A program made the translations under genes and the position numbers. DNA of 63,194 nt, filler included, from Lenisia limosa (lineage: Eukaryota; Protista; Breviatea), in the NCBI GenBank assembly GCA_001655205.1. It is 14 parts of 14 records of this genome, joined end to end, with 100 filler letters (N's around TTAATTAATTAA, not from the genome) between each part and the next. Parts side by side here need not be neighbours in the genome. Positions count along the whole stretch, not along the records: positions 10,852 to 12,342 come from LPNZ01008893.1; positions 12,443 to 18,039 come from LPNZ01005533.1; positions 18,140 to 21,579 come from LPNZ01007795.1; positions 21,680 to 29,185 come from LPNZ01002574.1; positions 29,286 to 31,045 come from LPNZ01005115.1; positions 31,146 to 33,850 come from LPNZ01006101.1; positions 33,951 to 35,459 come from LPNZ01007962.1; positions 35,560 to 52,120 come from LPNZ01010379.1; 6 more parts are not named here. One strand, given 5' to 3'. Below, piece by piece: positions 11,132 through 62,889 of this stretch. Numbering within the stretch: the first letter of the stretch is position 1; the number at the start of each line of letters is the position of its first letter. The notes under the pieces are model-generated. The model did no database searches. It was not told the DNA's origin and saw only the letters and a list, made by a program, of their open reading frames with translations.

Positions 11132-11779
11132 AGTATAATCGCCGTCAGCCAGCAGGTCGGAAGCGATTGTGACGGACGGGGCGACTTGGGATGAGAAGAA
11201 CGTCGTCAACGGAGCCGTTGTGGGGGTGATAGACCTGGGGAGGGGAGGTAAAATTCGTAAAAGTATGAAACAAAATAGCTCAAAATCAACTCTTTAAAGG
11301 CTACGAAGGCTTTTGGATTGAGGGTGAACACTAGAGTAACAGAATGCAGCGTCCTCACCATGTGTAGGAAACTTGCCCAATGAAGGCACCATGGTTTAGC
11401 ACGGCAGACTTGGCGGTATAACTTTCACAGGTGGTGATTGTCTGTGTTAGTCAAAAGAAAAAAGTTGTATAGTACATCTATTTAACATGAAGTCCCTGTG
11501 GTCCGGAAAACTCGGTATAATATCGGTAAAATATCAGTGAAATTCGGTAAAATATCTGTAAAATATCGGTGAAATATCAGTAAAATATATATTCTTCGAG
11601 TCAGGAACTGGGAGATACAAGGCCCACTAAACCCCTTCAAACACCCACATCATATTCATCATATTCATCATATTCATCACATTAAAAACCATTGACAACA
11701 CCCACATCCGGAGCAGCAGTCCACTTCATTTGGTTGACGGAAGGAATTACTGGTGAGTCCAGCATGATCGTCTGTATGG
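11132..11779 (-). CDS. Partial REJ/PKD-like surface protein, probable paralog of 1-3415
   Basis: Exons IQTIMLDSPVIPSVNQMKWTAAPD, TITTCESYTAKSAVLNHGAFIGQVSYTW and SITPTTAPLTTFFSSQVAPSVTIASDLLADGDYT; the phase is consistent across W|SIT. Confidence 0.5.
11235..11330 (-). repeat. Intron 3'-end repeat family I
   Basis: Sense strand gagttgattttgagctattttgtttcata..gaattttacctcccctccccAG ends exactly at an acceptor. Confidence 0.75.
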
Positions 11780-11871
11780 CTGCGGGGAGGGAGGGGGAGT
11801 AAAATAGGTAATTTTATGAAACAAAAAAAAACCAAAATCAACTCTGTTGGCTGACAACACACTAAGGTTGA
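11780..11871 (-). repeat. Intron 3'-end repeat family I
   Basis: Sense strand gtgtgttgtcagccaacagagttgattttgg..tgtttcataaaa..ttttactccccctccctccccgcAG. Confidence 0.85.
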
Positions 11872-11994
11872 NNNNNNNNNNNNNNNNNNNNNNNNNNNNN
11901 NNNNNNNNNNNNNNNNNNNNNNNNNNNNGGGGGGGGGGGTAAAACGAAGGAAAAGGCACTAATCACGAACCGAATAATATGAAATTCTTGGAAT

Positions 11995-12150
11995 GGGGAG
12001 TAAAATTAGAAAATTTTTGAAAAAAAAGCCAAAATTAACTCTGTTAGCTGACAACACATGAGGGTTGATAAGTAAAGATGGAAATTTTGTGCCGCAAAGA
12101 CACTCTGTTGGTGGAACACACAGTTGAAAACAGCAAAACAAACAAAGCGC
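11995..12150 (-). repeat. Family I repeat, partly duplicated
   Basis: Sense strand atcaaccctcatgtgttgtcagctaacagagttaattttggc..aattttactcccc. Confidence 0.75.
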
Positions 12151-12491
12151 AGGAAGGCTCTTGCCTGGGGAGCGTGATTGGAGGGCTGACGGGGCTAATA
12201 TGGGGATAGTATGTGGTTTCATGGGGTACCCTCCTCCGCCCATACCCATTATATCGGACCCCTTAATTGCATTTTCTGTATATCAACATATGTATGTATA
12301 GCAATGATAAATAAAAAATAAGGTTATCGGCCGAAGCCGTCCNNNNNNNNNNNNNNNNNNNNNNNNNNNNNNNNNNNNNNNNNNNNTTAATTAATTAANN
12401 NNNNNNNNNNNNNNNNNNNNNNNNNNNNNNNNNNNNNNNNNNATTCGCCAGTCAGAATATATTCCATAATCAAGGTATTTTCACCCCGCAG

Positions 12492-15400
12492 CTGGCTTCA
12501 GTGATGAGACTTCCACAACTTTCTACAGCCTTTTCGAAGATGCCACTGATGAGTGTCTAATTACATGTTGGAGGGGGGGGGGTTCCAACATATTATTATA
12601 ACGCTCTGATGGACTATTATTTGTATTATATGCTAACAACAAAGGCTTTTCCTGTGTCTGTAGTGTCAACAGTATGGTCTCGGGAACCATGTATGTTACA
12701 AATAGCTCTTTTTGCTTCTATGCTACCAAACTTGGTCAAGAAACGAAGGTTGGTGGTACACTTTTTTTCACCATATTCCATATTTTTTTCCAGTGAATGC
12801 ATACAGCCTTTTTTTTATCATTTCTAATTGCAACCAAAGAATCACCGCTGACTGTGTAGCTGCACATCAAATTCAAGGATATCAATCGGATATTCCAGAA
12901 GCAAAGTGCTGGTATGATAGCAGCTATTGGACTCACCACCAAGTCTCACAAGTTGAGGGGGGATTTTATTATTGTTACTTTTCTTCCTGCCTATATATAT
13001 ATATATATATATAGTATATGTATTACATATTATATAGTATATGTACATATATTTTCTTTAACTTTCTCAGATACACGCTGCGTTCGTTCAAAAACCGTGA
13101 CCAAGCCTTCGAGTACCTTCATAATGCTTGGGAACAGGCCAAACCACAAGAGGTTGCCCCCCCCCCCCTCCCCATCCTTCCTCTCTTGANNNNNNNNNNN
13201 NNNNNNNNNNNNNNNNNNNNNNNNNNNNNNNNNNNNNNNNNNNNNNNNNNNNNNNNTCCCCAGCAATCTCGTCGCGAGGAGTTCCGACCCCTCCCTGCCG
13301 AAGACGTTACGTTTGTCTCAGACCAGGTGCTTCACATTTCACCATTTGGCGGAGAAGTGGGAAGGGGGAGGGGGGGGGCTGGCAACACTCATCATTTGTA
13401 GTATACTATATTATATTAGTACGATATGATAGCATAGCATATCATATGTGAGTTTTTGAAGTTTGGTTTTGTTTGATTTTTATTTGTTTGTTTCTATTCA
13501 CTTCTTTAAATTCCATTGAATACTTTTTTGAAAAATGGAATGAAAAATATGTAATATATATACGTTTTTGTATTGTTTGAAAAGTAGTGAAATATCATCA
13601 CAATGGCTTTAGACCCAAGGTACCTTCATTATCACCAACTTCCGCATCATCTTTCTTGGATTTGAAGTGCTTGAGGTTGGCTGGACCTGGTTCGTTCTTT
13701 CCTTTCCAAAACTGAAGAGAACAAATCACACCTTCTCATTTCCAAAACAGGAGGAATTTTTTTTCCTCTTTAGCTTACCACTGTCATAGGATGAAGAGGA
13801 GATCGGAGAGAATGGAGAGCCCATTGACAATGATCGCCATTCTGGGGTTAGCCATTTCCTCAAATTTGTTCTCGTTCAGTATTCTTTTCCGTTCTTTCCT
13901 TTTGTTTTTGATGCTGATGATGTAGATTCTGGACATTGAGATTCCCCTTCAGTCTGTCTGGGGCCTGGCCAAGGACGGAACCCTGGGGTATAGCGTGAGG
14001 GGGGGGGGGATAATATTATTAACAAACCATCCGGTATTATCATCCCTTGATACCTCCCATAATAAGAATAGTAGTAGCTATTATATACATGTAGTATATC
14101 ATATATTACTAGTATTATCACATTTTGGATCATTCTCACGCGTGAACCATCATTTTCCACGCAGCTTATCCAGTTATATATGATAATTTACCGACATAAG
14201 TCTCAATGATACTTTGATATACTCGGGATGAACTCTCATGCTATTTTCTTTCATTATTTCGACTTGAAAGTCGGTCATATGATCGTATCACTTGTGGATA
14301 TGTGATGATATTGATATCCTTAGGTTGGAGGCAAGAAGGGAAAACTCTCCAAGTGGACCAACAACCTCAAATCTAAGGCAGCCCACTCTAAAATGGCTAC
14401 CAAGTTTACCAAGTCTTCTGTGGGTGGTGGTCGGGGTGCGTTAATAGGGGGAAGGTTGTCATGGGGAATATGGATGAAATATATTTATTTATTTTCAAAG
14501 AAAGGGTTCAAATTGAGATATATCTATATATATATTGTACTACATACAGTATGTTCCTTCAGGAACCTGATGAAAGTTTTGATAGTTTTGATTCGTCATC
14601 TAGTTATTTACTACCCAGGAGTCTCCAAGAACATTGTCTATTACATCAAAGGACTTCCAAAGGACCAAGTTCACTTTCCAGCCCTTGACCGGGTGGGTAG
14701 TCATAGACAGTCTGGATATTAGAGACAAATAGGTAGAGAGATAGTGGCAGCCCCCCCCCCCCTNNNNNNNNNNNNNNNNNNNNNNNNNNNNNNNNNNNNN
14801 NNNNNNNNNNNNNNNNNNNNNNNNNNNNNNNNNNNNNNNNNNNNNNNTTCATTTCCATTTCACCTCTATACAGACAACGTGGAGAGGCTTTTGACAAAAT
14901 CTCCGAGTTGGCCTTCCCAAAGTTCCATAGTAACCTGTTTGCGTTTGCGTTGGCTACTAAAAACTCCGTAGGGAGGAGGAAGGAGTAAAACAAAATACTT
15001 TTCTAATGGTGTGAGTATATTCCCTTGGACGTAATCCTATCCGACCGCGAATATCATGTTATACAACATTACGATAACCCTTCTTTGATGACTTAAACGT
15101 CATAGAGACCCAGCAATGTTACACGAATCAATGGTACATCAATTCGACCAGAGTACCTCCCAAGTGGCCCAGGTTTGTGGATGACTATGGGGAAATGGAC
15201 AGTTTATGTTTGTTTATTATCCAATCAGATCAATAGATATTGAGGTGATGTCTTGTTTTGTAATCGTTTTAATAAGCTCAGTATCTCGTTTGCTTTCCTA
15301 ACATATCAGATGCAGGATGGACATTTGACATCGAGAAGGAAATGGAGAGAATGGGTATGTATGACTTGTCTATGAAATATGGCGATACAAAATGTGTTAC

Positions 15401-17963: not shown

Positions 17964-18699
17964 GTAATTTGCTCTCACGTGTATCACCATTTAAAAAAAT
18001 ATCATTTAAAAATTTACGACAGCTTCCTTTTTACCCGTCNNNNNNNNNNNNNNNNNNNNNNNNNNNNNNNNNNNNNNNNNNNNTTAATTAATTAANNNNN
18101 NNNNNNNNNNNNNNNNNNNNNNNNNNNNNNNNNNNNNNNCGATGAAGAATATTCGCGTAAAGGTACCGAATAATCTGAAACTCCAAACGAACAAGCAGAG
18201 CAAGAAAGCCCAAATCATTTTATTACCAAGGCAATGACAAACGAGGGAGGGGGGGGGGCAAGGCAGTTATATTTACTAAGAAAAGAACCTAAAAAAAGCG
18301 ACATCCACACCCCATACACCAAAATAAAGCAAACAGCAACTGCGAGAGAGCAGCCCCCNNNNNNNNNNNNNNNNNNNNNNNNNNNNNNNNNNNNNNNNNN
18401 NNNNNNNNNNNNNNNNNNNNNNNNNNNNNNNNNNNNNNNNNNNNNNNNNNNNNNNNNNNNNNNNNNNNNNNNNNNNNNNNNNNNNNNNNNNNNNNNNNNN
18501 NNNNNNNNNNNNNNNNNNNNNNNNNNNNNNNNNNNNNNNNNNNNNNNNNNNNNNNNNNNNNNNNNNNNNNNNNNNNNNNNTAAAAGAATGAAGTAATTAT
18601 TTTTCCAATACTAGTTTTTTTGTGTTATTTGAAAATTCGGGAAAATTCTAGGACATTCTATGAATTTTTTTTTTTTTTAACGATTGCCTCGCTCCCTTA

Positions 18700-26600: not shown

Positions 26601-28999
26601 TCGATAACACAATATATAATGAGCATCCATTGTAATACACTATCTAGAAATGAGAAATAAAACAAGGTTAAATTTGACCTAAGCTGCACTTAAAGGAGGT
26701 ATTGAATGATAGTATAATATATTATGTATAAAAAATAGAATATTTCAGTTCATCCATGCTTCACAAAAATATCATAAAATTTATGGTACAGAGTGAGTGA
26801 TCATGAAAAATGACTAAATTTCTCGATATTCCATATTTTACTGGTCTTTTACTAGAGTGAAGCCCCAGTTAAATAAAATCATTTCTCACAAAAAGGCTCC
26901 CCCTATGTATTGTATTTATTTACTGTCAAATGTTATTCTCGCCCCCCNNNNNNNNNNNNNNNNNNNNNNNNNNNNNNNNNNNNNNNNNNNNNNNNNNNNN
27001 NNNNNNNNNNNNNNNNNNNNNNNNNNNNNNNNNNNNNNNNNNNNNNNNNNNNNNNNNNNNNNNNNNNNNNNNNNNNNNCGGAGAAGAATGACAGTTACCA
27101 AAACGGGAACGCCCAGGACCAAACTGAAGATCGCTATGATCGCAGCCCACATGTATGTCACGTGATCGCCTTCGTAACATCGAAGGGATGGAGCTGGTTA
27201 GGAGTGAAAACGAAGGAGGTGTGGGTTAAGGATGGAGAGGAGTGTAAAAAAAGGTGATGATGAGAGGGGTGAAAAGATGGTAAGAGGGGTGAAAACAGGG
27301 TGATGACGCCCAACTAGAAATAGATACTCTCTGTCAGTCAAATTCTAAGGGCAAAGACCCATCAGGGTTTTTTGACGCTAAAATCAACCGTGTATCAACA
27401 CCCTCACCCCCTCTTATTCACTACCTCAACAATCATACCACAACTACCCCTCATCATATAAAGCAGCCCACCCCCTCAAACCCGCATCCAGCGTCCACGA
27501 CCCGTCCGTCTGGTAGGTGCAGTCGAAGTACTCCAGACCAATGGTACTCAGCGGAATGTAGAAGACCACTGCAATGAACAGGTTCGTACGGATGTAGGCA
27601 TGTCTGCGTGGGGGGGGGGGGANNNNNNNNNNNNNNNNNNNNNNNNNNNNNNNNNNNNNNNNNNNNNNNNNNNNNNNNNNNNNNNNNNNNNNNNNNNNNN
27701 NNNNNNNNNNNNNNNNNNNNNNNNNNNNNNNNNNNNNNNNNNNNNNNNNNNNNNNNNNNNNNNNNNNNNNNNTTTGTTGAATCAAAAAAAAAAAAAAGAA
27801 GCCCAGAATCAAGTCTGGTAACACACAAGGGTTAAGAATAACGAAATACACAAAGACATTGGAAATTTATTAATAAAACATAATCTTGGGGAATGGAGAT
27901 TAAGTAGACAGTTTAAGAATCATAAGTGAAGCAATAAAAAGAAGACCTACTTCAAATCCTCCTTGAAGGTATTGACGAAGTTACGGGCTGAGGGGGGCAC
28001 TTCTGTTGAGTGTTAGCTGTACTGTGTTTGAACACACAACAAAAAAACACAATTATGGCCCAAGGGAAAATATCTACAAGGCTTCGCTATGGTACCAAAA
28101 TACCGGAATTTCTCTCTAAATCCTAGACAAGTATTGATACTTTACCAGTCTTCTATCGGACGTAGGGAAGCCCTAAACATACTCATCCACGCCCCTACTC
28201 ACCATCCGCTACATTCTTCTCTACGCGTTGACTCTCTTCCCAGGTCGGTTCTGGTGCGACGCTGCAGAGGACTTGCTTACCACGAACAGTATAGTAGAGG
28301 AGAACGGTCAGGTAAATGAGAGTCACGAAGAAGACGGCAATGAAGGGTACCATCAACTTGTAGACCTGTAGGGTGAACCCATATCCACAGTGATATGATT
28401 ATATAACTGATATCGAGTTGAAATGAAGAAAAGATAACACGAGTATCACTGAGACTTGTCGGTCAATTATCATATGAGGTATCATATCACTGCGTGGAAA
28501 GATAATTGAAACGTGTGAATATAATCCAAATAAGTGAAATAATGATAACACCTACCCTCCCCCTCTCCCCACCATTAGTTGGTAGAATCCAATCTGGCTC
28601 TGAGCTGAACACTCGGGGGCTGCTACATCGGCTGGAAGGGGGGGATTAAGGTCTTTATTATTATTATTATTATTATTCCTATTATTATTATTTTAGTTAA
28701 TCCAGTATCATATCAATTTATAAATTTATGTGTGCGCGATTGATTGCATGTGTGTTTTGCTTGAAGGAGGGTGACCAAGATTTCAGACTACAAAGTTGTC
28801 TCAGATATCTATACTATATTGCATAGTGGTACCATCATCAAAGTACAAAAGAGATGTAATTTGCTTGGACTTAAAAACATATCCTCCTAACTAATCACTC
28901 CCCTCCCCCACCATTTAAAGCCGAAAAGGACAGGTATTGGTAGGTTTCCTTTACTTCGTCAGGCCAATTCAACTGGAACTCCGCAAAGAGCGATGTGAT
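23690..28999 (-). CDS. Partial multi-pass (7 or more TM) membrane protein, paralog of 18700-21190
   Basis: Exons ITSLFAEFQLNWPDEV..LN|ADVAAPEC, VPFIAVFFVTLIYLTVLLYY, FYIPLSTIGLEYFDCTYQTDGSWTLDA|APSLRCYEGDH, YGFLYTRFRPKNFMWELIIMGR, NKPYVSKRLNRLE and YLSIFVIALIGVNIIVI. Confidence 0.8.
23939..24038. mobile_element. MITE family A, TSD 7/8 (ATTAGAAC/ATTAGAAA)
   Basis: TIRs and internal atcgata/atcgagaaattcagtc match the family. Confidence 0.85.
24883..24976. mobile_element. MITE family A, with TSD CTCCTGAT
   Basis: TAGAGCTTCAC...GTGAAGCTCTA flanked by identical 8-mers at 24875-24882 and 24977-24984. Confidence 0.9.
26160..26236. mobile_element. MITE family A, internally deleted
   Basis: Degenerate TIRs; flanks ATAGTACC and ATAATACC. 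Confidence 0.7.
26499..26600. mobile_element. Family A-related end with expanded TTCGG/CCGAA subterminal repeats
   Basis: tagtgcttcatttcggttcggttcggtttcggttaaccaaaaccgaacc. Confidence 0.55.
28376..28550 (+). repeat. Dispersed repeat R1, intronic copy
   Basis: aacccatatccacagtgatatgat...gagacttgtcggtca...acgtgtgaa. Confidence 0.8.
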
Positions 29000-29303: not shown

Positions 29304-31042
29304 GCTATGCTGCCTATCTCAGTAGCTGCAATATGCCCGGGTGGACAGGCACCATCCGTGTTCAACTCCGGATGCGCACCATGCGCGCCAAATACGTACG
29401 ATGCGCGTGAATACGCCTCGGCTGATCCCTACACTGTTACGGCACGGGATCTTCTTCCCAGTATTGTACCATGCCCGTCTTGCCCCCTCCATACTTGTAC
29501 CAGCTGTTTGACGCATAAGGTAACTGCGGCTACTTTTTACCATAAGGAAGGCTAATTGGTTACCATGTAATGAATATTATGGTATTGTGTTCTTTTGTCA
29601 GTTAAGGGAAGTTTTCAGAGATTCTTTTTCGTGAGATACTTCACGTCTATTTCTTGACACTGCGAATAACTAACAAAAATATCGTAACCACATTAAGATT
29701 AGCTACCCTATTAGGATATATGTACTTACCATATTAGGAAAGTCCGGAGGCTTCAACCAGTGAAAACGCTTGTATTTGCTCAGAGGGCTTCTATGGCAAC
29801 CCAGGATTAGGTGGGAGTGGTTTCTTACAATTAGGTCTCTGTGCAATTAATTTGAAAATTAATACGAAATTTGAAGCATTTTGTCATGTAAACTCAATTT
29901 TAGACACGTTTGTTGTAATGTTATCTCATTTTTAGGCTCTTTTTTTTCAAAGTTTGTCACCAAGTCCTACTTAAAATGCATGAAACATATACCTTGAAGC
30001 CAAAATTCTTCATCGTAATTTCCTTCGTTTTACAGTTAATTTGGGCTTTTTTGTTTCATAAATTTCGAATTTTACTCCGCCCCCCCCCCCAGAGAAGTGC
30101 ACGATTTGCCCTGAAGGAGGAGAATGCCCAACCGGTTCGATTGTACCCAGTCCCTCAGCAGGGTTTTGGCCAGTACGCTACATACTTTTCCTACTCGAAT
30201 AATATATTTGAATCTCCCCCTGTTGTTTTAAAAAAACAACAAGAGCAAATCATTGGAAATCTAAGGGGGGGGGAATACATCATTTTCGGCCAGACCCCCA
30301 TTAGTTTACCTCCTGCATAGGAATCTATCTATAAACAAATTACCATGCCTGGGGCTTCACTTCGGTTCGGAAAAAACCTTCAAATATCGGTAGTTTTCGA
30401 GGATTAGTATTTTTTTTCGAACCGAAGTGAAACCCTAACCATTCACCCTAACCTCGGATCATTCACATATCCTTACTATCATAGAGACCCATCTATCTAA
30501 ATTTCACTAGTTTTACTCTCAACAGTATTACTACAGTAACAATTTACGTCACCCCCCCCCNNNNNNNNNNNNNNNNNNNNNNNNNNNNNNNNNNNNNNNN
30601 NNNNNNNNNNNNNNNNNNNNNNNNNNNNNNNNNNNNNNNNNNNNNNNNNNNNNNNNNNNNNNNNNTCCCGCAGACGGGATTTGTGCGGACGGCTACACTG
30701 ACTATGGCTGTACCACTTGCGATGGAGGGTGGGAGGAGGGGGAATTGGTTTCAGTTTCGGGTTTTTATGTTCATAAAAGTCAACCCACTTACACAAATAC
30801 AAACACGTTAACACGCTTCTCAAATGCACACTCATTTACATAATTACTCATCTTCACAATTCATTAACACAATCCTTTACACGCTCATACACAATCAATT
30901 AGGTCTTTCACCCCACCCCACGTACGCTGTAGTAATGAAATGCGGTGCTACATAAGCGACTGTTTTGTTGTGTTATCAGCCAACAGAGTTGATTTGGGTT
31001 TTTTGTTTCATAAATTTTCTTTCCTTCGTTTAACCCCCCCAG
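29304..31042 (+). CDS. Partial Cys-rich (GCC2/GCC3-like) surface protein ectodomain
   Basis: Exons CPGGQ..GCAPCAPNTY, ASTSENACICSEGFYG, CTICPEGGECP..PSAGFW and GICADGYTDYGCTTCDG. Confidence 0.75.
29831..29940. mobile_element. MITE family C, degenerate
   Basis: taggtctctgtgcaattaattt end similar to 53818. Confidence 0.45.
30033..30092 (+). repeat. Intron 3'-end repeat family I
   Basis: cagttaatttgggcttttttgtttcataaatttcgaattttactccgccccccccccAG, followed directly by the exon EKCTICPEGG. Confidence 0.8.
30350..30437. mobile_element. MITE family A
   Basis: TGGGGCTTCACTTCGGTTCG...CGAACCGAAGTGAAACCCTA. Confidence 0.85.
30922..31042 (+). repeat. Intron 3'-end repeat family I, long copy
   Basis: gtacgctgtagt..aatgcggtgctacataagcgactg..tcagccaacagagttgatttggg..tgtttcataaatttt..aacccccccAG. 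Confidence 0.85.
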
Positions 31043-33149: not shown

Positions 33150-33204
33150 GTTTGTGGTTTCTCTATATCATGCTCCTAAGTATGCAGAAGACTGTGCACG
33201 GAGT

Positions 33205-33950: not shown

Positions 33951-35458
33951 CAAAGAGCATTTTGGCCTTTTTGATGGCCTTAGCTCTCCGTTCAGGATCT
34001 AAACGTAAGGGAAAGTCGATATGTTGATGTAAATAATGTAAATACTGTCAGTGAAAACATGCAACTTGAAGTGAAAAACACGTCAGCAAGAAGCCCTGCT
34101 CACCATTCAGAATCGGGCAGTTGCTTTTATCCAGCTTGAAAGACAGGGTATCTTCGAAGTACTCGCCGCGTCCTTGCGGGTTTGTCGGGTCGGAACCCCA
34201 AGGTTCCCCCCGGGCCTCGGCCGCGTCGCGTTCCACCTCCAATGCCACGCGAAACTCGTCGAAGGTGGCCATGGCTATGTCGACTGGGTTGGAGTCTAGG
34301 GAGGGGTAAAATAAAGACAAATTTATGAAACAAAAAAGCCCAAAATCAACTTTGTTGGCTGACAACACACAAGGGTGATAACAACAAAATATACACACAC
34401 ACAAAAAAAAGGGGGCAGTCGCTTCTGCTGCACAGCATCTTATCACTCCAGCGTACGGGGGTTAAGAAGGTACAATTTTATAAATTATATCATATCATAT
34501 AGCTATACACTGACTGGGAAAAGACTTGACCGATTTTACTTGGGAAATCATCTAGCAAATCGGTCAAGACTTTTCCAGCTCACAGTATATCATATGATAC
34601 AACATGGCATTTATATATACTATATATACTATATATACTATATATACTATATATTATGTCCATCACGCTCATAAGAGCTATGGGATAATGGTATTTCACC
34701 CAATTATTTTCCTTACTCTACACACAGCTTTCTGCGTTCCTCTATATATAATAATGCCTCAAATATCTCCCCCCAACCATATATCCCCAGGTCCCTAGCA
34801 GCAACCGTCGCGGGAATTCGCTCATAATCAAGGCGGTGCGGAAGCTCATCGTCACTGTTGCCATCGGAATCGTCGTCCAGGTCAATGTCACTCTCACTGT
34901 CACTGGGGGGGGGGGTAAATTGGAAAATTTATGAGGTTGATAACAANNNNNNNNNNNNNNNNNNNNNNNNNNNNNNNNNNNNNNNNNNNNNNNNNNNNNN
35001 NNNNNNNNNNNNNNNNNNNNNNNNNNNNNNNCCCGTCGCTTGTAAAAAGAAGGATATTTATGAAAAATAAAGCCAAAAATCAATTGCGTTTGACTAAAGA
35101 ATATGACACAAATGGGTTGAAACAACAACAAAGCCCAAGTCAGTTCCTTCGGCAGCACCGCATTACATCACTAAAAATAAACCAGTGGAAGATTGAGACA
35201 GAATATTAGCCTTGCAAACCAATTGAATCAAACCCACACACAATACCCAATCAAGAACAGTGATCATAATATTAATAGTGAAAAAAGGCAAGAGAGGGGA
35301 GTGCGTGATATCATAATTAACTCTCTAGAAAACTGAACATTATAAGGCCCTTTCCCCCCCCTAAATCACCTGGAAAGTTCATCAAGCAGTGAAGGCTTGG
35401 CCCTTCGAGCAGTTGGATTGAGACGGAACTGTTTTCTGCAACCAGTCAAGAGGATATG
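33951..35458 (-). CDS. Partial protein of unknown function with an acidic tract
   Basis: Phase-consistent exons: HILLTGCRKQF..LLDELS|SDSESDIDLDDDSDG..RDLGIY|VDIAMATFDEFRVALE..CPILN|DPERRAKAIKKAKMLF. Confidence 0.65.
34284..34456 (-). repeat. Intron 3'-end repeat family I, long copy
   Basis: Sense strand gtacgctggagtgataagatgctgtgcagcagaagcgactg..gtgtgttgtcagccaacaaagttgattttgggc..ccAG. Confidence 0.85.
34508..34585. mobile_element. MITE family B
   Basis: TA-flanked; gacttgaccgattt...aaatcggtcaagac. Confidence 0.8.
34903..35175 (-). repeat. Family I repeat pieces on both sides of a gap, ending at an acceptor
   Basis: Sense strand aatgcggtgctgccgaaggaactgac..ttgatttttggcttt (35050-35175) and ttgttatcaacc..aattttccaatttacccccccccccAG (34903-34946). 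Confidence 0.7.
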
Positions 35459-39529: not shown

Positions 39530-42490
39530 CATGGATCGCTTTGCAGCTCTTTTTGGATTTCACAGCAGCACTTCTTTTGGCGTTTTTAATACTACTTTGG
39601 CAGAAGCCGCATTTGGATAACTTTAAGTTGGTACTTCACAATAGACATGGATCATGGTCATGGATCGCTTCTCGCCTGTTTTTCACCCATTCTCTCAACA
39701 TTACGTTGGCAAGGAATGCTTTGGATAACGTTCAGAATTGTTTTGGGAATAGCTTTATGGACAAATTAAATCGTTTGTAATTCGGAATTTAATTCTCATA
39801 ACTTCACTTTGGCATCAGCCGTATTTTGGATAACTTTCAGTTGGTACTTCACATTAGACATGGATTGCTTCTCGCCTGTTTTTCACCCCGCTCAACACTT
39901 TGGCAAGGAATACTTTGGATAATTTTCAGTATTATTTTCGGCATAGCTTTATCGACATTACACATCGTTTGTAACTCGGATTTTAATACTCATTTCTTCA
40001 CTTTGGCGTAAGCCACATTTGGATAACTTTCAGTTGGTACTTCACATTAGACATGGATCACCCCGTTCTCTCAACACTTCTTTGGCAAGAAATACTTTGG
40101 GCAACTTTCAGAATTATTTTCGGCATAGCTTTATCGACACTTTAAATCGTTTGTAATTCGGATTTTAATTCTCATAACTTCACTTTGGCATCAGCCACAT
40201 TTGGATAACTTTCAGTTGGTACTTCACATTAGACATGGATCACCCCGTTCTCTCAACACTACTTTGACAAGAAAAACTTTGGGTAACTTTCAGAATTATT
40301 GTTGGCATTGCGTTATCGACAGTTTGCATTTTGTAACTCGGATCATAATACTCATAACTTCACTTTGGCATAAGCTGCATTTGGATAACTTTTAGTTGGT
40401 ACTTCACATTACAAACGAAATACATTAGACATGAATATCTTCTCGCCCATTTTTCACCCCATTCTCTCAACATCACTTTGGCAAGGAATACTTTGGATAA
40501 CTTTCAGAATTGTTTTCGGCATAGCTTTATCGACACTTTAAATCGGTTGTAATTCGGATGTTAATACTTCACTTCGGCATCAGCCGTATTTTGGATTACT
40601 TCCAGTTCTTCACATTAGACATGGATCGCATCTGACCCGTTTTTCACCCCGTTCTCTCAACATTTGGCAAGGAATACTTTGGATAACTTTCAGAATTGTT
40701 TTCGTCATTGCTTTATCGACACTTCGTTTGTAACTCGGATTTGGAATACTCTTAACTTCACTTTGGCATAAGCTGCATTTGGATAACTTTCAGTTGGTAC
40801 TTCACATTAGACATGGATCGCTTCTCGCCCGTTTTNNNNNNNNNNNNNNNNNNNNNNNNNNNNNNNNNNNNNNNNNNNNNNNNNNNNNNNNNNNNNNNNN
40901 NNNNNNNNNNNNNNNNNNNNNNNNNNNNNNNNNNNNNNNNNNNNNNNNNNNNNNNNNNNNNAATACTCATACTTCACTTTGGCATAAGCGTTTGGATAAC
41001 TTTCAGTTGGTACTTCACATTTGAGCTCGCCCGTCTTTCACCCCGCTCAACACTTTGGCAAGGAATACTTTGGATAACTTTCAGAATTGTTTTTCGTAAT
41101 AGCTTCGACACTTTACATTGTTTGTAATTCGGATTTAAATTCTCATAGCTTCACTTTGGCATCAGCCACATTTGGATAACTTTCAGTTGGTACTTCACAT
41201 TAGACATGGATCGCTTCTCGCCCGTTTTATTACCCGATTTTCTCACATCACTTTGGCAAGGAATACTTTGGATAACTTTCAGAATTGTTTTCGGCATAGC
41301 TCTATCGACACTTTACATCGTTTGTGTCTAGGATATTTAATTATTATACTTCACTTTGGCATCAGCCACATTTGGATAACTTTCAGTTGGTACTTCACAT
41401 TTGAGCTCGCCCGTCTTTCACCCCCCTCAACACTTTGGCAAGGAATACTTTGGGATAACTTTCAGAATTGTTTTCGACATAGCTCTATCGACACTTTACA
41501 TCGTTTGTGTCAAGGATATTTAATTATTATACTTCACTTTGGCATCAGCCACATTTGGATAACTTTCAGTTGGTCCTTCACATTTGACATGGATCGCTTC
41601 TCGCCCGTTTTTTTACCCGATTTTCTCACATCACTTTGGCAAGGAATACTTTGGATGACTTTCAGAATTGTTTTTGGCGTAGCTTTATCGACACTTGCAT
41701 CGTTTGTATCTTGGATTTTAATACTCTTAACTTTGGCATAAGCTACATTTGGGCAAGAAATACTTTAGATAACTTTCAGAATTGTTTTCGGCATAGCTCT
41801 ATCGACACTTTACATCGTTTGTATCTAGGATTTCAATACTCATAACTTCACCTTGGCATAAGCTGCCCTTGGATAACCTTCAGTGGTATTAGACATGGAT
41901 CATCCCGTTCTCTCAACATTACTGTGGCAAGGATTTCTTTGGATAACTTTCAGAATTGTTTTCGACATAGCTTTATCGACACTTTACATCGGTTGTATCT
42001 AGGATTTCAATACTCATAACTTCACTTTGGCATAAGCTGCCCTTGGATAACTTTCAGTTGGTACTTCACAGTAGACTTGGATTGCTTCTCGCCCGTTTTT
42101 CACCCCGCTCAGCACTTTGGCAAGGAATACTTTGGATAACTTTCAGAATTGTTTTCGGCATAGCGTTATCGACACTTTACATCCTTTGTAACTCGGATAA
42201 TAAAACTCATAACTTCACTTTGGCATAAGCTGCATTTGGATTACTTTCAGTTGGTACTTCACAAAATTACTTCTCGCCCCCGTTTTTCACGTTCTCTCAA
42301 CATCACTGTGGCAAGGGTTTCTTTGGATAACTTTCAGAATTGTTTTTGGCATAGCTCTATAGGATTTCAATACTCATAACTTCACTTTGGCATCAGCCAC
42401 ATTTGGATTACTTTCAGTTGAACTACATTAGACTTGGATCGCTTCTCACCCGTTAAACACGTTTACGTTCGACATTTCTTTGGCAAGGAA
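39530..42490. repeat. Tandem array of about 15-16 units of 180-210 bp
   Basis: ttggataactttcagttggtacttcac recurs at about 39613, 39826, 40019, 40201, 40381, 40591, 40779, 40992, 41172, 41372, 41560, 41870, 42044, 42236 and 42404. Confidence 0.95.
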
Positions 42491-52410: not shown

Positions 52411-55400
52411 CTTGCAGAGCAGTGTGGCTTTTCCTGATCAAATCCTCAGCCCATTTCGGGGCTTCTCTCTGGCCGACTGAATGCGGTTAGGGGACATACA
52501 GTGACCGGGATAAGTCTTGACCTAATTTCTTTGGGAAATCACAAGCTAATCGGTCAAGACTTATCCCGGTCGCTGTATCAAAAGTTAAACGGGGAAAATA
52601 TATTAATGAATCTTGGGAAACAAATTCACCCTTTTCCTATGCTTCAAAAATTGAATTTTACTCCCCCCCCCCCCNNNNNNNNNNNNNNNNNNNNNNNNNN
52701 NNNNNNNNNNNNNNNNNNNNNNNNNNNNNNNNNNNNNNNNNNNNNNNNNNNNNNNNNNNNNNNNTCAGATTTCCAATTTTAATCCAGCAACAGAGGTGAT
52801 TTTGGATCTCAAATTTTACTTTACCAAACTTACTTTTCCAATTTTATTTTTCCAATTTAACTTTTATCACCCTCCACATCCCGCGAACCATTTCGTTTCC
52901 CAATACAGCACCGGTCTTGAAGAGCAGCGGTAGGCGTATTAGTAAGGTCTACCGCTATGAGTGCATCGTCCGTCACAAATGCTAGGTAACGTAAGGGGGA
53001 ATTGTACTCGAAAAATGTATGGAAAATATGTGGGGGGGGGGGCTGTTTTTAAAAAAAATGCAAGGTAAATTGGGAGGAAATTTTATTCCAAATGCAAGAA
53101 AGCGCTGCTCTTGATACACAACAGGAACTAGGGGTTCCCTCCCGTACGAAATTGACCGATAAAATATCGATAGTTTTCGAGGATATATCGAGAAATATCA
53201 ATACTTCTCGCGGTCATTGCAACATACAACACTACAACAAAAACAGCAACGCCTACCAAGATGATGTCTGAACAGAGCCAAATGAGTGACAACTCCTGAA
53301 ATGTGAAAACAAAACAAGCGTGTCAGGCAAACGATTGGGTGAATTAATAAACTGAGAAGGCACGCAGAAATGTGAAAGCAAAACAAATGAACCTCCTTCC
53401 CTGGTAGTGGGGAGAGTTGTCAGGCAAATAATTGGAGTATTATTATACTATAGTTCAATATATCAAATAAGCGTGATGATGTGGACGGCTTCNNNNNNNN
53501 NNNNTTTTCTCATTGCTAAACAAATAATCCAATATCTCTGATACGTGATGGTGTCAACAGCCTCGGCTTCGATATTTCTCGTATATTAAATTATATGTAT
53601 ATATTTGTTGATATTTATGAGGTACATTTGGTCATTTTCTGAACTGAAGTGGAGCCCTATCCATCATACCTGGGGGTGTGACCATGCTTTCCACAACCAA
53701 ATTTGCTGCGTTGGGACAATACTAAAAAGTCAGTGACTTCAAACTTTCGGTCAATATTTTTGAATTGAAGAAATAAAATGTCAAATAGAACAAAAGTGTT
53801 TGAAATAGCGTTCTCGTTAGGGCTCCGTGCAATTAAAATTTTTTTTTTGCAAAATTTGAAGTGGGATGTAGTGTAACCAGGACCCCTTTTCAGACACTTT
53901 AATTGCTAATTTTGTCAATTAATTTCTTCCTAGTTCTTATGAATATAAGTCCCCCTTCAAAGGCAATAGGTATCGTGGTGAGCCAAATATAATATAGCAT
54001 GTAGTATTGTACATACATTGAATATCAAATACTAAATGACGCCACCACCACCTTTATTCTTTTATTCATTTTTATTTTTCATTATTTTGGTTGTGGTGTC
54101 AACGACCTTTATTATCTCATTTCTCTTTTCTCACCCCCACCCTCCCAACCTTGGACTGAGCGGTGGACGACAGCGGCTGTTCCTTGCCTGGGTGAATTAC
54201 GCTCGCAACGAAGATGGAAGCTCCGCTGGCAAAAGCGACTCTCGAGGTCTGTCTGTAAAGATAAGATATTGGCAAAAGCAACTCTCGATAAGATATTATA
54301 TCATATAGTACTATGATTATAGTAAAACGCTACATAAGATATCAGAAAAAAAACATTGGGGGGGGGGGGGNNNNNNNNNNNNNNNNNNNNNNNNNNNNNN
54401 NNNNNNNNNNNNNNNNNNNNNNNNNNNNNNNNNNNNNNNNNNNNNNNNNNNNNNNNNNNNNNNNNNNNNNNNNNNNNNNNNNNNNNNNNNNNNNNNNNNN
54501 NNNNNNNNNNCATTTGTGCACTGTTTTTCGCGTCTGAATGTGTCAAATATCGATATTTATCAAGGAATGTGTCAGCTAAGTCAAATATCGATATTTATCG
54601 AGGAATGTGTCAGCTAAGTCAAATATCGATATATATCAAGGAAATTCTCACCACACGTTCTGCTGTTTTGCTGAGATGCTCTTTGAATGGCGCTTTGGAA
54701 AAATATCGACACCATGCAATTAATTTTTTAAGGTTAATTGACAAAATTAGAAATTAAAGTGACTAATAGGGTTACAATATGTCCGACTTCCAATATTGAA
54801 AAAAAATAATTTTTGAAAATTAATTGCACGTAGCCCTATAATATCATCTGATAGCCCCCCCCCCCTTATATACCCCCTCACCCTGTTTCCTCCAGTCGCC
54901 ATAGCAGCGAATGCAACTTAAACCATCTGCTACCTCCAAAGTAATCACACTAATCAATGAGTTTTAAAGAATATTCAAACTAATCAATGAGCTTTATAGA
55001 GTAATCACATTAATCAACTAGTGTGTGTGTGTGTGGGCGGGGGGGGGGGNNNNNNNNNNNNNNNNNNNNNNNNNNNNNNNNNNNNNNNNNNNNNNNNNNN
55101 NNNNNNNNNNNNNNNNNNNNNNNNNNNNNNNNNNNNNNNNNNNNNNNNNNNNNNNNNNNNNNNNNNNNNNNNTCTTATTATTACTGTAACTGAATGTTAC
55201 AAACACTATTGATTCAACTGACACTTCTACTGAAACTCACATAATTATTAATATTACTATTATCAATCAATATCACACATTCATCACACTGCAAACCAAT
55301 CAATCACAGGAAGATGAAAGAAAGCCTTGATGTTGGCGTTGACTAGTCGGAACCATCCTCGTGACTCCACCTTGTCTTTTTTGTGCTGACACAACCACAC

Positions 55401-56100
55401 GCGACCTGCGAAAGAGGGTAAATAAGAAAATGGAAAATGGAAAATATTATGGCGGNNNNNNNNNNNNNNNNNNNNNNNNNNNNNNNNNNNNNNNNNNNNN
55501 NNNNNNNNNNNNNNNNNNNNNNNNNNNNNNNNNNNNNNNNNNNNNNNNNNNNNNNNNNNNNNNNNNNNNNNNNNNNNGAAGGAGAATACGAGAGTTGGAA
55601 ATAAAACACACAAAACCCAGCCAGTCGTTTTAGTAGCATTTAGATAAAGCAATCTGGACACAATAACCAAAGTAGTTAATCTTTAATTTGTTGTTCCACT
55701 TGCACCCCTCCATCCTTAAAGACAATAACACCACATCATCCTTAAAGACAATAACACCACATCATCCTTAAAGACAATAACACCACATCATCCTTTTAAA
55801 GACAATAACACCACATCATCCTAAAAGACAATAACACCACATCATCCTGAAAGACAATAACACCACATCATCCTAAAAAAAAATAACACCACACCTTAAA
55901 GACAATAACACCACNNNNNNNNNNCCTCCATCCTTAAAAACAATAACACGCCACCTCATCTATAAACGACATCCCCCACCATCTTTGCACGCGACAATGG
56001 CAGACGAAGGCTCGTTAATTAAGGGCTCTATGAAGTGTGGAAGCGTGTTCGGCGCAAACACTTCCTGGGAGTCGAAGAGATCGACACTTAGAAACTTCAT
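52411..56100 (-). CDS. HPS3: HPS3-like (BLOC-2 subunit) N-terminal region, 3' truncated
   Basis: MKFLSVDLFDSQEV, CIRCYGDWRKQDLESRFCQR and YCPNAANLVV parallel, in order, human HPS3 as recalled ([40 protein letters not shown]). Exon phases are consistent where checked. Confidence 0.62.
52499..52575. mobile_element. MITE family B
   Basis: TA|CAGTGACCGGGATAAGTCTTGACC...GGTCAAGACTTATCCCGGTCGCTG|TA. Confidence 0.88.
53315..53560 (+). repeat. Dispersed repeat D, partly duplicated
   Basis: gtcaggcaaa..ttgggtgaatta..aagcgtgatgatgtggacggcttc..ttctcattgcta. Confidence 0.75.
53818..53935 (+). mobile_element. MITE family C
   Basis: TAGGGCTCCGTGCAATTAA..gtaacc..ctaattttgtcaattaa. Confidence 0.65.
54543..54645. 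repeat. 38-bp tandem repeat (about 2.7 copies) containing the internal motif of MITE A
   Basis: Unit gtcaaatatcgatatttatc(a/g)aggaatgtgtcagctaa. Confidence 0.85.
54715..54838 (-). mobile_element. MITE family C, inverted relative to 53818
   Basis: Reverse strand TAGGGCTACGTGCAATTAATTTT..gtaacc..ctaattttgtcaattaa..aattaattgca. Confidence 0.7.
55711..55950. repeat. 26-bp minisatellite, about 8 copies, in the first HPS3-like intron
   Basis: Unit cttaaagacaataacaccacatcatc. Confidence 0.92.
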
Positions 56101-56604: not shown

Positions 56605-56730
56605 CTATGGGTACAGAGTTGTATGGCAAATCATGGGTGAGTTAATATTTTATAGTTCATTGTCTTTTAAATGCGTGATGGTGTGGACATCTTCTCGTTT
56701 CTACATTTAATGTGATGATGTGGACTGTTT
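56605..56730 (+). repeat. Dispersed repeat D
   Basis: ggcaaatcatgggtgagttaat..gcgtgatggtgtggac..gtgatgatgtggac. Confidence 0.7.
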
Positions 56731-57097: not shown

Positions 57098-57197
57098 CTT
57101 GGAGCGAGTAGCCCCGGTTGAGAATCATCAGTGGTTTTTCGACGTCAAATGCACCAACTGTGGAGAGGAACGACACATGGTGTACTTTTATGAGGAT
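57098..57197 (+). CDS. CZIB: Exon of CXXC-motif zinc-binding protein (CZIB/C1orf123/DUF866)
   Basis: LERVAPVENHQWFFDVKCTNCGE matches the family motif LEN..L.P...F.W...KC..CGE. Confidence 0.75.
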
Positions 57198-57427
57198 GTG
57201 AGTGAGGGGTTGTATTTTAAAAGGATGGGGGGGGGGGGNNNNNNNNNNNNNNNNNNNNNNNNNNNNNNNNNNNNNNNNNNNNTTAATTAATTAANNNNNN
57301 NNNNNNNNNNNNNNNNNNNNNNNNNNNNNNNNNNNNNNCAAAACAGCACTTCACCTCAGATTATTCATCACTATCTGAACGCATGGATCCAATACATTAT
57401 ATCCATATAATGATCTTTTTCCCACCT

Positions 57428-58785: not shown

Positions 58786-59080
58786 GNNNNNNNNNNNNNN
58801 NNNNNNNNNNNNNNNNNNNNNNNNNNNNNNTTAATTAATTAANNNNNNNNNNNNNNNNNNNNNNNNNNNNNNNNNNNNNNNNNNNNAGGTAAAAATCAAT
58901 ATCATGTATTAGGTTAAAAAAAAAATGAAATTCTACACACAGTGTCGTAAGATTGCATAATTATGATATGTGTATGTATACTGAAGCTATTTTTTCGAAA
59001 CTTAAGTGTCTGAAATGACGTTCAAGTTACAATATGTTCCAATTTGAATTTCAGAATGAATGTCCATAAAATGACCAATT

Positions 59081-61457
59081 CAGGTACCAGGTACCATTTC
59101 AAAGCTCGTCGTGTCAAACATCACTGTCGAAGGTAAGAACATTATTAGGCAAATTATTGGGTGAATTAGTATTTTTAGTCAAATATCTCTTTTAACCGTG
59201 ATAGTTTGATGGCTCAGATACAGCCACTTTTGATTTCGTTTCTACCTACAAAACAAAATTCAAAATTCAACCTCTTAGGCCTCTTCCTACATGACCAGCT
59301 CATATTCCCGACTATTCTGCTCCGAGCCAAAAGCGCTCAAAACTTGGTTTGCGCTGTGTCCTAGCAAAAAGGAATATATATGTTGCGTGTTGATATTCGA
59401 ATCAAAATTCCCGCTAAACATCTTCTTTGACTCGAAAAAAAGCGAGTGCGGTGAAACTTTGTGCAAAACTACACCCCCCCCCCCTTCCTCTTATTTTTCA
59501 TCTTCTAGACTGAAGATNNNNNNNNNNNNNNNNNNNNNNNNNNNNNNNNNNNNNNNNNNNNNNNNNNNNNNNNNNNNNNNNTTTCTTCGGACCATTTTAA
59601 CACTGCACCAGTTTTGATCAGGGTCGTTTCAACGTCCCCGTCCTTTCCCAAGTCAATGTGAGGAAAGATGGCGTCAATACATGAACTTCACTTTCAAAAT
59701 ACGTGAAATAATTTCGACTCAAAAGTCGGTCATATGCTCACTTGTGGTAATGGATTAACGTGTGATATGATTTACCCACTCATAGTTATTACTAGTGCTC
59801 CGTGCAATTCATTTTTTGAATAAATTAATTGACACATTTTGAAATTAAAGTGGCTTAACAGATTACATTACAATATATCGGTCTTTTACAACTGCAATTT
59901 TTTTATCATATGATATGTGAATACTATTATTATTGAGTATTATATGTGGTCTCTTTATGCGTGATGGTGTTGACGGCTTCGGCCAGATATAGGCTATTTT
60001 GATTTCTTTCTCTACATACTACACACTATATTTTAATAGATTATATCATGATATGTTAATCATGTAATATACGTTAACAGAAACAAGTTCATAAGTGCAC
60101 ACAAGTTGGCTTCTTATGTAACTAATGTTTATTATTTTTCAGAAACCGTGGAACTGGCTTCTCCTTATTCGAAGTGGAGTGCGCCTCCCCGACAGACTTC
60201 CATAAGTTGATCACAGCGGCTTCATTAGGGTTCACTGGGCTTATTCGATCTGCGTTTATCCCAGAACTGATCTCCGTGACCTCAAACTTGAAGTAGGTGA
60301 AGAATGTTTCATCGGGTTTTCATACCATATAGTAGTATATATGTAGGGCTTCACTTCGGTTCCCAAAAACGGAAAAAATATCGATAGCTTTCGAGGATTT
60401 ATCGAGAAATTCAGTCTTTTTTTTTGAACCAAAGTGAAGACCTAAGTATTATATGATATCTTATTTCACTCTTCATTATTGAAAATTTGATTATTAACAG
60501 AGGTTAGTGAATTGTCAAATTTCATTGTTGAAAATTGGGTAATGTAATTATATTACTCAGTTCTTCTTGGTTAATACGTGACGTGTGATATTACTTCCCT
60601 GTTGTTGAACAGAAATATCTCCCATAAGGACCTAAACCGTCGTTTTATTCTTTTTTTATTTCGTATTTATTTAATGTTTTCACAAACCATAATCATTGTC
60701 TAAAGTCACCTTTATATGACGTATATTATGGGTCTGACTTTTTTTAGGAAAGCTGCTCAACGTGACACTCTTCTGTTCAAAGTTTGTGGTACAGTATATT
60801 CATTTGATAGTATAATTGACACAATATTTGTTGAATTAATAATACGATGTATTGCATTGGAACAATATATATAAGGATAATTACTAGGATTTTAAGCATT
60901 TAGAAATTTGGCAAATTATTAATTGGTCAGATGATGATTTTTGTCTGATATGTAAGGCATATGACGAACACAAATATTTAATGCTAATTTAACATGACAT
61001 TTAGGACGTACTTGTGGACAAGAAAGTTCAATCTTCAAAAAAGAAGCCGTTATCCCAGCACCTTGTACTTTCGGTAAGTTGTTTTTTTAACAAGAGAAAT
61101 AATTATACATTAGAAATCTAGGAAAACAAATAAATCCATAGGGATACCGTAAATAATACCCTGCCTCCGCGCTCACCCTCCTTGGCGCCCTCCGCCCCGG
61201 TATGGTAGTTCCCCTGTCCAGGTGATTTGTATTTTAAGGCAAATGCCTAGGTTAATATTATTAGCTGCCTATGAGTTAGGGCTTCCCTTTTCTCCACAAA
61301 TAACCGACACAATATTGATATTTATCGAGGATTTAAGAATTTAAGAAAAATTCATTCTATTTTGGAACCGAAGGTGAAGCTCATCCTACCCCTCATACAA
61401 GCCCAATGAAGGTCGCTTTGTTTGGTGACGTCATGAACTGTGTTGACTTGGCCTCCC
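59081..61457 (+). CDS. Partial multi-exon protein of unknown function
   Basis: Splice-bounded open exons, e.g. RGTGFSLFEVECASPTDFHKLITAASLGFTGLIRSAFIPEL and PMKVALFGDVMNCVDL. Confidence 0.45.
59700..59790 (-). repeat. Dispersed repeat R1, partial
   Basis: aaagtcggtcatatgctcacttgtgg. Confidence 0.6.
59788..59905. mobile_element. MITE family C
   Basis: tagtgctccgtgcaatt..aattaattgaca..aaattaaagtg. Confidence 0.6.
60344..60444. mobile_element. MITE family A
   Basis: TAGGGCTTCACTTCGGTTC...GAACCAAAGTGAAGACCTA. Confidence 0.88.
61276..61382. mobile_element. MITE family A, degenerate
   Basis: TAGGGCTTC..tatttatcgaggattt..gaaccgaaggtgaagc. Confidence 0.7.
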
Positions 61458-61493
61458 TGTAACAATCATTTTGAGATCAAGATTGGGGAAAAC

Positions 61494-61542
61494 TAGGGCT
61501 TCACTTCGGTTCAAATAATACCAGTAAAATATCGATAATTTG
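61494..61542. mobile_element. MITE family A, cut by the scaffold end
   Basis: TAGGGCTTCACTTCGGTTC..aaatatcgata. Confidence 0.8.
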
Positions 61543-61787
61543 NNNNNNNNNNNNNNNNNNNNNNNNNNNNNNNNNNNNNNNNNNNNTTAATTAATTAANN
61601 NNNNNNNNNNNNNNNNNNNNNNNNNNNNNNNNNNNNNNNNNNTCACGCTTATAAGAGATATTGGAATGAGTTAATTGACCCGATCATAAGGAAGAAGTCT
61701 GTTAGAAAACCCTTCCAAAATAGGCAAGTATTTGTTTTAATCAAAAGTGCCAAGCGGCTCTCACAGCCAAAGCCCATCTATCGTAAT

Positions 61788-61888
61788 TAGGGCTTCACTT
61801 CGGTTCGAAAAAAGACTGAATTTCTCGATAAATCTTTTGAAAATTATCGATATTTTACCGGTCTTTTTTGAACCGAATTGATGCCCAA
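61788..61888. mobile_element. MITE family A, with TSD ATCGTAAT
   Basis: Identical 8-mers at 61780-61787 and 61889-61896. Confidence 0.92.
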
Positions 61889-61911
61889 ATCGTAATAACA
61901 CCCCCCACCTT

Positions 61912-62889
61912 GGCATGCCAGTGGTCAATCAGTTCATAAGCGTCCTCGCTGCCGATTTCCCACTGGAAGGATTTCTGGGGGGGGGGGGTGAAATGGAGGA
62001 ATATCTATGGAGAAGAGCGAACTATATCATTGAAAACTCCAAACAAATAGAAGCACAATAAGCAAACAGAGGGGAAGCAATTATAGATTGATTAAGCATC
62101 TTTTTCGGAATCAAAAATATCACATACACTTACAAATACAAAATAATATTCCATTAGGGCTTCACTTCGGTTTGAAAAAGACTGAATTTCTCGATAAATC
62201 CTCGAAACCTATCGATATTTTCCTGGGTTTTTTCGAACCGAAGTAAAGCCCTCATACAGCCCCCCCCCACTTGGTCCAAGAACTGTTCCCTCATTGTGGT
62301 GACCTTTGCTTCAAACGCGTCTCTAGCGACCTGAGGGGTGAGGCGTGGAGGGGGGAGTAAAATTGGAAATTTATGAAACAAAATAAAGCCCAAAACCACT
62401 CTATTGGCAACACACGAGGATTGATAACAACAAAACAAATAAAGCCCGGGCCAGGAGCTTCTGTAGCTCCGCATCCCAGACATGGAATAGTTGAGTAAGA
62501 AAAGCACCTCCCCCCCCCCCCNNNNNNNNNNNNNNNNNNNNNNNNNNNNNNNNNNNNNNNNNNNNNNATAATAAATAAAAATAATAATAAAAAAAATAAT
62601 ATCAAAAAAGGTTCATAAAATAATAAAAAAAAAAGGGGGGGGGGTATTCAAATCCCTCATACCTTGATTTTGACAGCTTCCTCTTGTTGGAGAGGCGAGA
62701 GTTTGTCCTTGACATGGTAGGATAGCTTTTTAGTCGATTGCCATCTGTATACGTTATTAGGGTGTAAAATTGGAAAATTAATGAAACAACAACTCTGCTG
62801 ATTAGCAGCACAAGAGTGACGTTGTTGGGATGAGGGTATGACAGAGTTCTGAACAACTTTTGTCCAAAACAGGACTCTGAGGAACAAAT
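61912..62889 (-). CDS. Probable axonemal dynein heavy-chain fragment (stem region)
   Basis: Spliced DKLSPLQQEEAVKIK|VARDAFEAKVTTMREQFLDQ|KSFQWEIGSEDAYELIDHWHAK resembles the PLQ..E...F...FR..F..F...Y..LD stretch of axonemal heavy chains, as recalled. Confidence 0.55.
62155..62252. mobile_element. MITE family A
   Basis: TAGGGCTTCACTTCGGTT...AACCGAAGTAAAGCCCT. Confidence 0.88.
62331..62480 (-). repeat. Intron 3'-end repeat family I
   Basis: Sense strand gatgcggagctacagaagc..ttgttgttatcaatcctcgtgtgttgccaatagagtggttttgggc..tttccaattttactcccccctccacgcctcacccctcAG. Confidence 0.85.
62760..62825 (-). repeat. Family I repeat, short copy inside an intron
   Basis: Sense strand tcagcagagttgttgtttcattaattttccaattttacacc. 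Confidence 0.6.

Follow-up and report, generated by a model that had tools for sequence, protein, structure and literature searches.

Intron-creating elements have been described (PMC12130899, PMC11282704). An introner is recognised by similarity that reaches both ends of the intron, to within about 10 intronic bases, and similarity at one end alone is removed by introner pipelines as a secondary insertion (PMC9860276). In Micromonas, introner remnants inside older introns form a minority beside whole-intron copies (PMC3879977). Penelope-like elements of the Chlamys group, known from both green algae and slime molds, insert at (C)n repeats, and many of their copies are truncated at the 5′ end; the non-autonomous members, MRC1 for example, insert head-to-tail (PMC8557442). 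The subject of this analysis is a repeat in a stretch of 63,194 nucleotides (nt) from the breviate Lenisia limosa (assembly GCA_001655205.1), termed the window, which consists of 14 small scaffolds joined by spacers and holds 59,052 called bases. The original prediction took the repeat for an introner or an acceptor-donating element. It is a real, non-random feature of this genome, a high-copy, non-coding element of about 140–170 nt, and it is not an introner, being confined to the 3′ part of its host introns.

Introns are throughout those predicted from reading frames. A set of 82, a subset of those in the window, was curated by hand from stop-free exon chains, one of which reaches a terminal stop; these introns have a median length of 158 nt, with 23 of at least 250 nt. 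The host is an intron-rich eukaryote, in which exons of myotubularin and VPS35 were confirmed by Pfam within the window. A search with the VPS35 exon returned only the protein encoded in the window itself, and the idea that the scaffold 14 gene might be an axonemal dynein heavy chain found no support in the searches made. A profile built on the ten originally predicted copies was refined into a model of 141 columns and used at a cut-off of 10 bits. Twelve matches in the window reach this value, against a maximum of 5.8 bits in reversed sequence, and three of them are new. All ten predicted copies lie where they had been placed, nine scoring 14–137 bits and the internally deleted copy at 34903 scoring 6.8 bits; the latter is the thirteenth copy in the window. 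The copies occupy nine curated introns in five genes, all in sense orientation, with the copy at 55589 lying outside the curated set. The four genes first named, on four of the 14 scaffolds, do carry them on the coding strand of stop-free exon chains, and the gene holding 27795–27857 is a fifth. The copies, with one possible counter-example, are the following:

11248–11319, minus strand: decayed 5′-cut copy in a predicted 124-nt intron (11358–11235), its 3′ end 13 nt before the AG
11799–11871, minus strand: last copy of a tandem stack, 5′ end hidden by an N gap, 19 nt before the AG at 11780
12000–12071, minus strand: 5′-cut tandem copy abutting the TTTAC end of the upstream copy
12072–12162, minus strand: older decayed copy (28.6 bits) with a C-run and AG before its start; new
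27795–27857, minus strand: copy in the fifth gene (predicted intron 27950–27604), its 3′ end entering an N gap followed by a C-run and AG; new
30032–30075, plus strand: short 5′-cut copy 17 nt before the AG at 30092
30922–31021, plus strand: copy with a full-length GTACGC head, 193 nt behind the donor, an older C-run directly upstream
34308–34456, minus strand: longest copy, with a GTACGC head, 321 nt behind the donor; TTAAC and a C-run upstream, two in-frame AGs (34296, 34284) following
34903–34946, minus strand: internally deleted copy continuing into a C-run and AG
35045–35173, minus strand: upstream tandem copy in predicted intron 35369–34903
52640–52810, plus strand: weak element-like fragments on the donor side, antisense to a minus-strand gene; possible counter-example
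55589–55638, minus strand: head half of a copy (12.8 bits), the remainder of which would fall in an N gap before the acceptor; new
62358–62478, minus strand: long 5′-cut copy about 27 nt before the AG at 62331
62764–62822, minus strand: decayed copy 19 nt before the AG at 62745

Fifteen of the 29 inner assembly gaps adjoin G- or C-runs and may conceal copies. The ten predicted copies do not represent ten separate hosts, as those at 11995 and 35050 lie in tandem upstream of the 11780 and 34903 copies, within the same predicted introns, an N gap separating the members of each pair. Occupation of consecutive introns holds for scaffolds 9 and 14, but on scaffold 3 an element-free 264-nt intron (11442–11705) intervenes, and for scaffold 7 it was not shown.

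The family extends beyond the window. An exact 22-nt core matched two contigs assigned to a bacterial bin (G001), which are taken as strays from this organism or from one very closely related to it because they contain the same two families of miniature inverted-repeat transposable elements (MITEs) and C-run acceptors. The bin contains stray intron-rich eukaryotic contigs (C39, C43, C46, C67, C69 and others), some with remains of DDE_1 or Tc1-type transposases. The same core had no match in the metagenome and viral contigs searched; a 19-nt core gave seven metagenome matches without extended similarity, which were taken as chance. In a held-out test, a model from the window copies alone was run on contigs C34–C96 (63 loci), where it found 10 copies at E<0.01 in five loci. 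Eight are sense in predicted introns (four in L023, two in consecutive introns of L024, one in L028 and one at L036 5521); for the other two, L034 1449 and L036 3154, no host could be assigned. The L024 gene appears galactokinase-like on one weak match (E 1.2).

The position of the copies is not random. The last copy lies within 35 nt of the acceptor AG in 12 of the 13 host introns measured (p about 3e-9 under uniform placement), a count that omits the 27604 intron, whose end is in an N gap, and the 3.5-kilobase (kb) L023 intron and that of L036 5521, whose donors were not placed. MITEs had been said to show no such tie to splice sites, and indeed only one of nine lies within 35 nt of an AG (Fisher p=0.0002 against the element; 13 of the 22 MITE matches fall outside curated introns and are omitted). 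Sense orientation likewise holds for all copies above background whose host can be assigned. The claim is qualified only by the antisense fragments at 52640–52810, which score 10.2 bits in one scan, where reversed sequence gave at most 8.7, and 6.4 against 5.8 with the refined model. The element is present in eight of 23 long introns (at least 250 nt) but in one of 59 shorter ones (p=1e-4), and the suggestion of local spreading is not needed, the family being genome-wide and this common in long introns anyway.

The two ends of the host introns behave differently. Their 3′ parts are mutually alike (median score 26, against 14 in controls), whereas their first 60 nt are not (median 13 both in 15 host introns and in 54 control introns). 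At none of the 15 donors is the element head found, scores against it being 8–14 with a control maximum of 18; for three held-out introns the donor position used was off by a few bases, without consequence for a local alignment. One interval, 12164–11780, is element from end to end, but it begins mid-element at a doubtful GC donor. With similarity confined to the 3′ part and unrelated 5′ ends, the name introner does not apply. The alternative of an acceptor-donating element fits: at the 3′ end of the element stands TTTTAC, and a C-rich tract and the AG come after it. A motif of this kind (yTnAy) is present in 62 of 73 element-free introns no more than 40 nt from their 3′ end, at a median of 11 nt. 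Seven copies do reach the AG through such a tract, as predicted, while that at 62760 stops 19 nt short. It had further been stated that the long copies begin with a donor-like GTACGC. Only two of the four long window copies do so, and these heads lie 193 and 321 nt behind the donor. As a donor the GTA(C/T)GC head is weak, scoring above only 8–16 of the 82 real ones. Recursive splice sites were considered and rejected because no AG precedes these heads.

Copies share a 3′ end and vary at the 5′ end. Among 22 matches of at least 10 bits, 19 reach model column 129 or beyond, and two of the three that fall short run towards N gaps; the 5′ starts are scattered over columns 1–100, and the full head is present in only three copies. 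These three, which are unlinked, open at the same GTA(C/T)GC, the sequence upstream being unrelated. A yT(A/C/T)AC motif or CCCC lies within 12 nt upstream of nine of 21 copies, compared with 6.6% of intron-interior 12-mers (p=3.5e-6), and all three full-head copies are among the nine. In the search for a target-site duplication, C-runs were seen to flank some copies on both sides. Four head-to-tail stacks were found (12162/12071, 35173/34946, L023 27/100 and L023 5305/5347). No near-identical young copies were seen: among 16 copies, a small sample of a large family, the 63 aligned pairs have a median identity of 80% and, for alignments of at least 60 nt, a maximum of 90%.

Features of other element classes are largely missing. 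Of terminal inverted repeats only GTA/TAC was found, and self-BLAST revealed palindromes for the MITEs and none for this element. Rfam gave no match on any copy at E≤1, and thus no transfer RNA (tRNA)-like head and no known RNA family; the tail is C-rich with no poly(A), and ten of 11 copies fold no better than shuffled sequences, the remaining one folding better (z −2.4). Four of 16 copies carry an AATAAA, always on the antisense strand. One L023 copy is interrupted by another element of 2.3 kb (L023 1418–3753), which has inverted ends and whose reading frames are broken, and the family must therefore be older than that insertion. Elsewhere on L023 (8100–8175, minus strand), four tandem 14-nt units resembling a sub-motif of the element stand ahead of an acceptor.

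Runs of G and C are a wider property of the introns. Among long introns, 20 of 45 have a G-run behind the donor, 22 of 45 a C-run before the acceptor and nine of 45 both; the figures for short introns are five, 12 and none of 37. The two ends could pair. Since element-free long introns also tend towards a G-rich start and a C-rich end, the C-run is regarded as a host feature offering a target.

Read data point to a large family. In a DNA run, 3,639 of 195,906 contigs align to 33951–34600 at 80% likeness. The summed DNA depth, which is not a copy number, is 19 over exon, 406,584 over the element core, 4,100–7,841 over its head and 47,930 over a neighbouring MITE. At least 445 contigs (219+64+68+94 listed) exit the 3′ side of the element through long C-runs or C/T-rich tracts into unrelated sequence, and there must therefore be at least hundreds of loci. 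The density in the window (13 in 59 kb) would correspond to thousands of copies in a genome of tens of megabases. Joints at which contigs go back within the element represent internal tandem duplications and deletions, a deletion being present also at 34903. In poly(A) RNA only nine of 180,449 contigs align to the same interval, at a depth of up to 22.5, and five are listed on the element; one shows the element end followed by a C-rich tract and AG, the host gene itself having no coverage in that run.

A second family with a different body, here called beta, also occurs at intron 3′ ends, in sense orientation where the host is known, and a beta end variant also closes some copies of the main element. 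Its five copies are:

11941–11998, minus strand: stacked between main copies
18142–18214, minus strand: at a scaffold end
29985–30031, plus strand: decayed beta end directly upstream of the 30032 copy
L024 3014–3075, plus strand: beta copy
L027 348–406, minus strand: outside the beta model, running into a C-run and AG

The MITEs in the window are ones that we take to be Tourist-like and Stowaway-like. A palindromic MITE with GGGCTTCAC ends (21901, 22116, 26164, 28080, 60344 and 62154) lies 14–51 nt behind the donor in four of six curated introns, a possible donor-side bias. The Rfam matches obtained were all weak, namely hairpins on MITEs and a single small nucleolar RNA (snoRNA) elsewhere. 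Other repeats comprise a satellite array with a unit of about 185 nt between two genes (39586–42490) and two dispersed, mostly intronic families (4540–4741, 14116–14302 and 28373–28543; 12294, 23394, 33321, 53449 and 59952). A 7-kb scaffold without clear exons (3657–10751) has broken long minus-strand frames and no Pfam match, and is possibly a decayed transposon.

It is quite plausible, and it is the explanation preferred here, that the repeat is a non-autonomous mobile element whose copies enter pre-existing introns at the C-rich tract separating the branch point from the AG, probably by reverse transcription primed there, with renewal of the acceptor. An RNA copy ending in TTTTAC and a C-run would pair with a nicked C-run at the target, and an enzyme borrowed from an autonomous retroelement would reverse transcribe it, often stopping early and so leaving 5′-truncated copies. 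The former branch point, together with some of the C-run, would be displaced upstream. Splicing would survive because each insertion would bring with it its own branch-point-like motif and a pyrimidine tract free of AG. Every insertion would rebuild the target site, so that stacks form and introns grow from the 3′ end. Priming at a C-run by a like-ended RNA would give the fixed strand, the fixed place, the 5′ truncation, the stacks and the old acceptor end upstream. The second family in this niche, the scarcity of the element in poly(A) RNA and the precedent of the Chlamys elements also count in favour.

Several observations weigh against this. No reverse transcriptase was found in the 34 + 79 reading frames scanned (about 140 kb), the mobile-element families in these 113 frames being DDE transposases only. 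No empty site was seen that would reveal a target duplication or show the introns to be older than the insertions; the host introns themselves are predicted from reading frames alone. Since G-runs near donors are almost as common as acceptor C-runs, pure targeting of C-runs predicts many antisense copies, contrary to the single weak antisense locus seen. An added assumption would be called for, either that the target includes the branch motif or that selection removes antisense copies, with their AATAAA. The model that reveals the 3′ polarity was derived from the same copies, which favours their 3′ part, and 5′ loss could stem from later decay instead of early stopping. The upstream motif was chosen after the copies had been inspected, and 12 of 21 copies are without it.

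Some of these points suit an origin by copying at the DNA level, whereby breaks or stalled forks at G/C runs would be resolved on the C-run of another intron, through template switching or gene conversion, with 60–170 nt upstream of that run being copied, and one intron-end lineage would have drifted to high frequency without a transposon enzyme. Intron ends are indeed marked by G/C runs, one boundary is sharp and the other ragged, tandem duplications and deletions occur inside the element in DNA contigs and at 34903, two families share the niche, and the scanned frames hold no reverse transcriptase. Copying of random length would hardly yield the same GTA(C/T)GC start in three unlinked copies below unrelated sequence, however; this bespeaks a discrete unit, and such an origin is considered unlikely. 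Another explanation is an old introner: a full GT...AG unit would once have made introns, MITE insertions and decay having since erased or displaced their 5′ parts, with nested copies a by-product, as in Micromonas, where 463 introner remnants outside or inside older introns are recorded along with nested copies (PMC3879977). The full unit opens with GT, albeit as a weak donor, and closes at AG, the copies with an assigned host are sense, 34456–34296 might be an entire intron lodged within an older C-tract, and 12164–11780 would be wholly element if its GC donor were real. Yet the head is at the donor in none of 15 host introns, whose 5′ ends are unrelated; where heads do occur, they are far inside the intron and immediately follow old acceptor-like ends, and in Micromonas it is whole-intron copies that dominate. 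This history is therefore judged distinctly unlikely.

Two further explanations assign the pattern to selection or to function. An ordinary short transposon or short interspersed nuclear element (SINE) might insert anywhere, with selection sparing only sense copies beside acceptors; the weak antisense locus and the two copies without a host intron end (L034 1449 and L036 3154) would be its traces, and the antisense AATAAA could make antisense copies harmful. As MITEs persist throughout the same introns, however, intron interiors evidently tolerate insertions and mid-intron sense copies would be expected, whereas all those seen belong to 3′ stacks; the element also has no terminal inverted repeats, tRNA-like head or poly(A) tail, and random insertion is accordingly improbable. 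Least credible is a conserved functional RNA module, such as a splicing enhancer or an intron-encoded small RNA, rather than a selfish element. The fixed distance to the AG, the enrichment in long introns and the one copy with a better fold than its shuffles are compatible with such a role. It would have to be reconciled with the absence of any Rfam match, the unremarkable folding of ten of 11 copies, the absence of the element from 15 of 23 long introns, and copies that have been shortened, have internal deletions or, in L023, are interrupted by a transposon.

The element can be compared with several described systems. Like introners (PMC9860276, PMC12130899, PMC3879977) it is tied to introns, sense, equipped with a 3′ splice signal and, at its full 5′ end, with a donor-like GT; unlike them it falls short of spanning the intron, has unrelated host 5′ ends and no terminal inverted repeats, and occurs in copies about 80% alike that are stacked at existing acceptors. 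It shares with non-autonomous Chlamys elements a common 3′ end, variable 5′ truncation and head-to-tail copies (PMC8557442). As regards insertion at (C)n, a Chlamys feature, nine of 21 5′ flanks show the upstream motif or C-run, a pattern defined post hoc, and C-runs lie on the 3′ side in hundreds of contigs. The unit here is very short, in contrast, with no autonomous partner or sequence link found in the 113 frames, and a tie to branch point and acceptor is not reported in the available excerpts on Chlamys (PMC8557442). Stwintrons similarly involve an intron-like unit inside a splice element of another intron (PMC8469720, PMC9024468), but the fungal cases mostly split the donor, while most copies here have no donor and could not be spliced alone. 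The element resembles MITEs in being short, non-coding, abundant and present in introns of the same genes. MITEs have long inverted ends and no fixed place, however, whereas the inverted ends of this element amount to GTA/TAC and both its strand and its place are fixed. A SINE would have a head derived from tRNA, 7SL or 5S and an A-rich rather than C-rich tail, and the element differs from structured intron-encoded RNAs of the snoRNA kind in having no family match and no conserved stable fold.

No element targeted to existing acceptors was found by title or abstract opening in a limited literature search, on which supplementary species lists may also bear. The repeat may well be best classed as a site-targeted non-autonomous element rather than an introner, a variant not met in the literature searched. 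More tentatively, and with some doubt, it could stand for a class of acceptor-homing elements, intron-derived RNAs that would locate existing introns by their own 3′ end, made up of branch point and C-run, and rewrite the 3′ splice signals there, in thousands of cases. The acceptor would be a safe haven, in which the branch point is replaced and the intron lengthened from its 3′ end; at least two families would occupy this niche, and such elements may be the source of the C-run acceptors of this genome. Introner surveys keep only whole-intron elements, and an acceptor-homing element would therefore be invisible to them. If this is correct, roughly one in three long introns of this genome is subject to a selfish element that continually replaces its branch point and pyrimidine tract, which would provide a direct route to intron lengthening and to the turnover of splice signals, and one that is testable with the existing assembly and RNA data.
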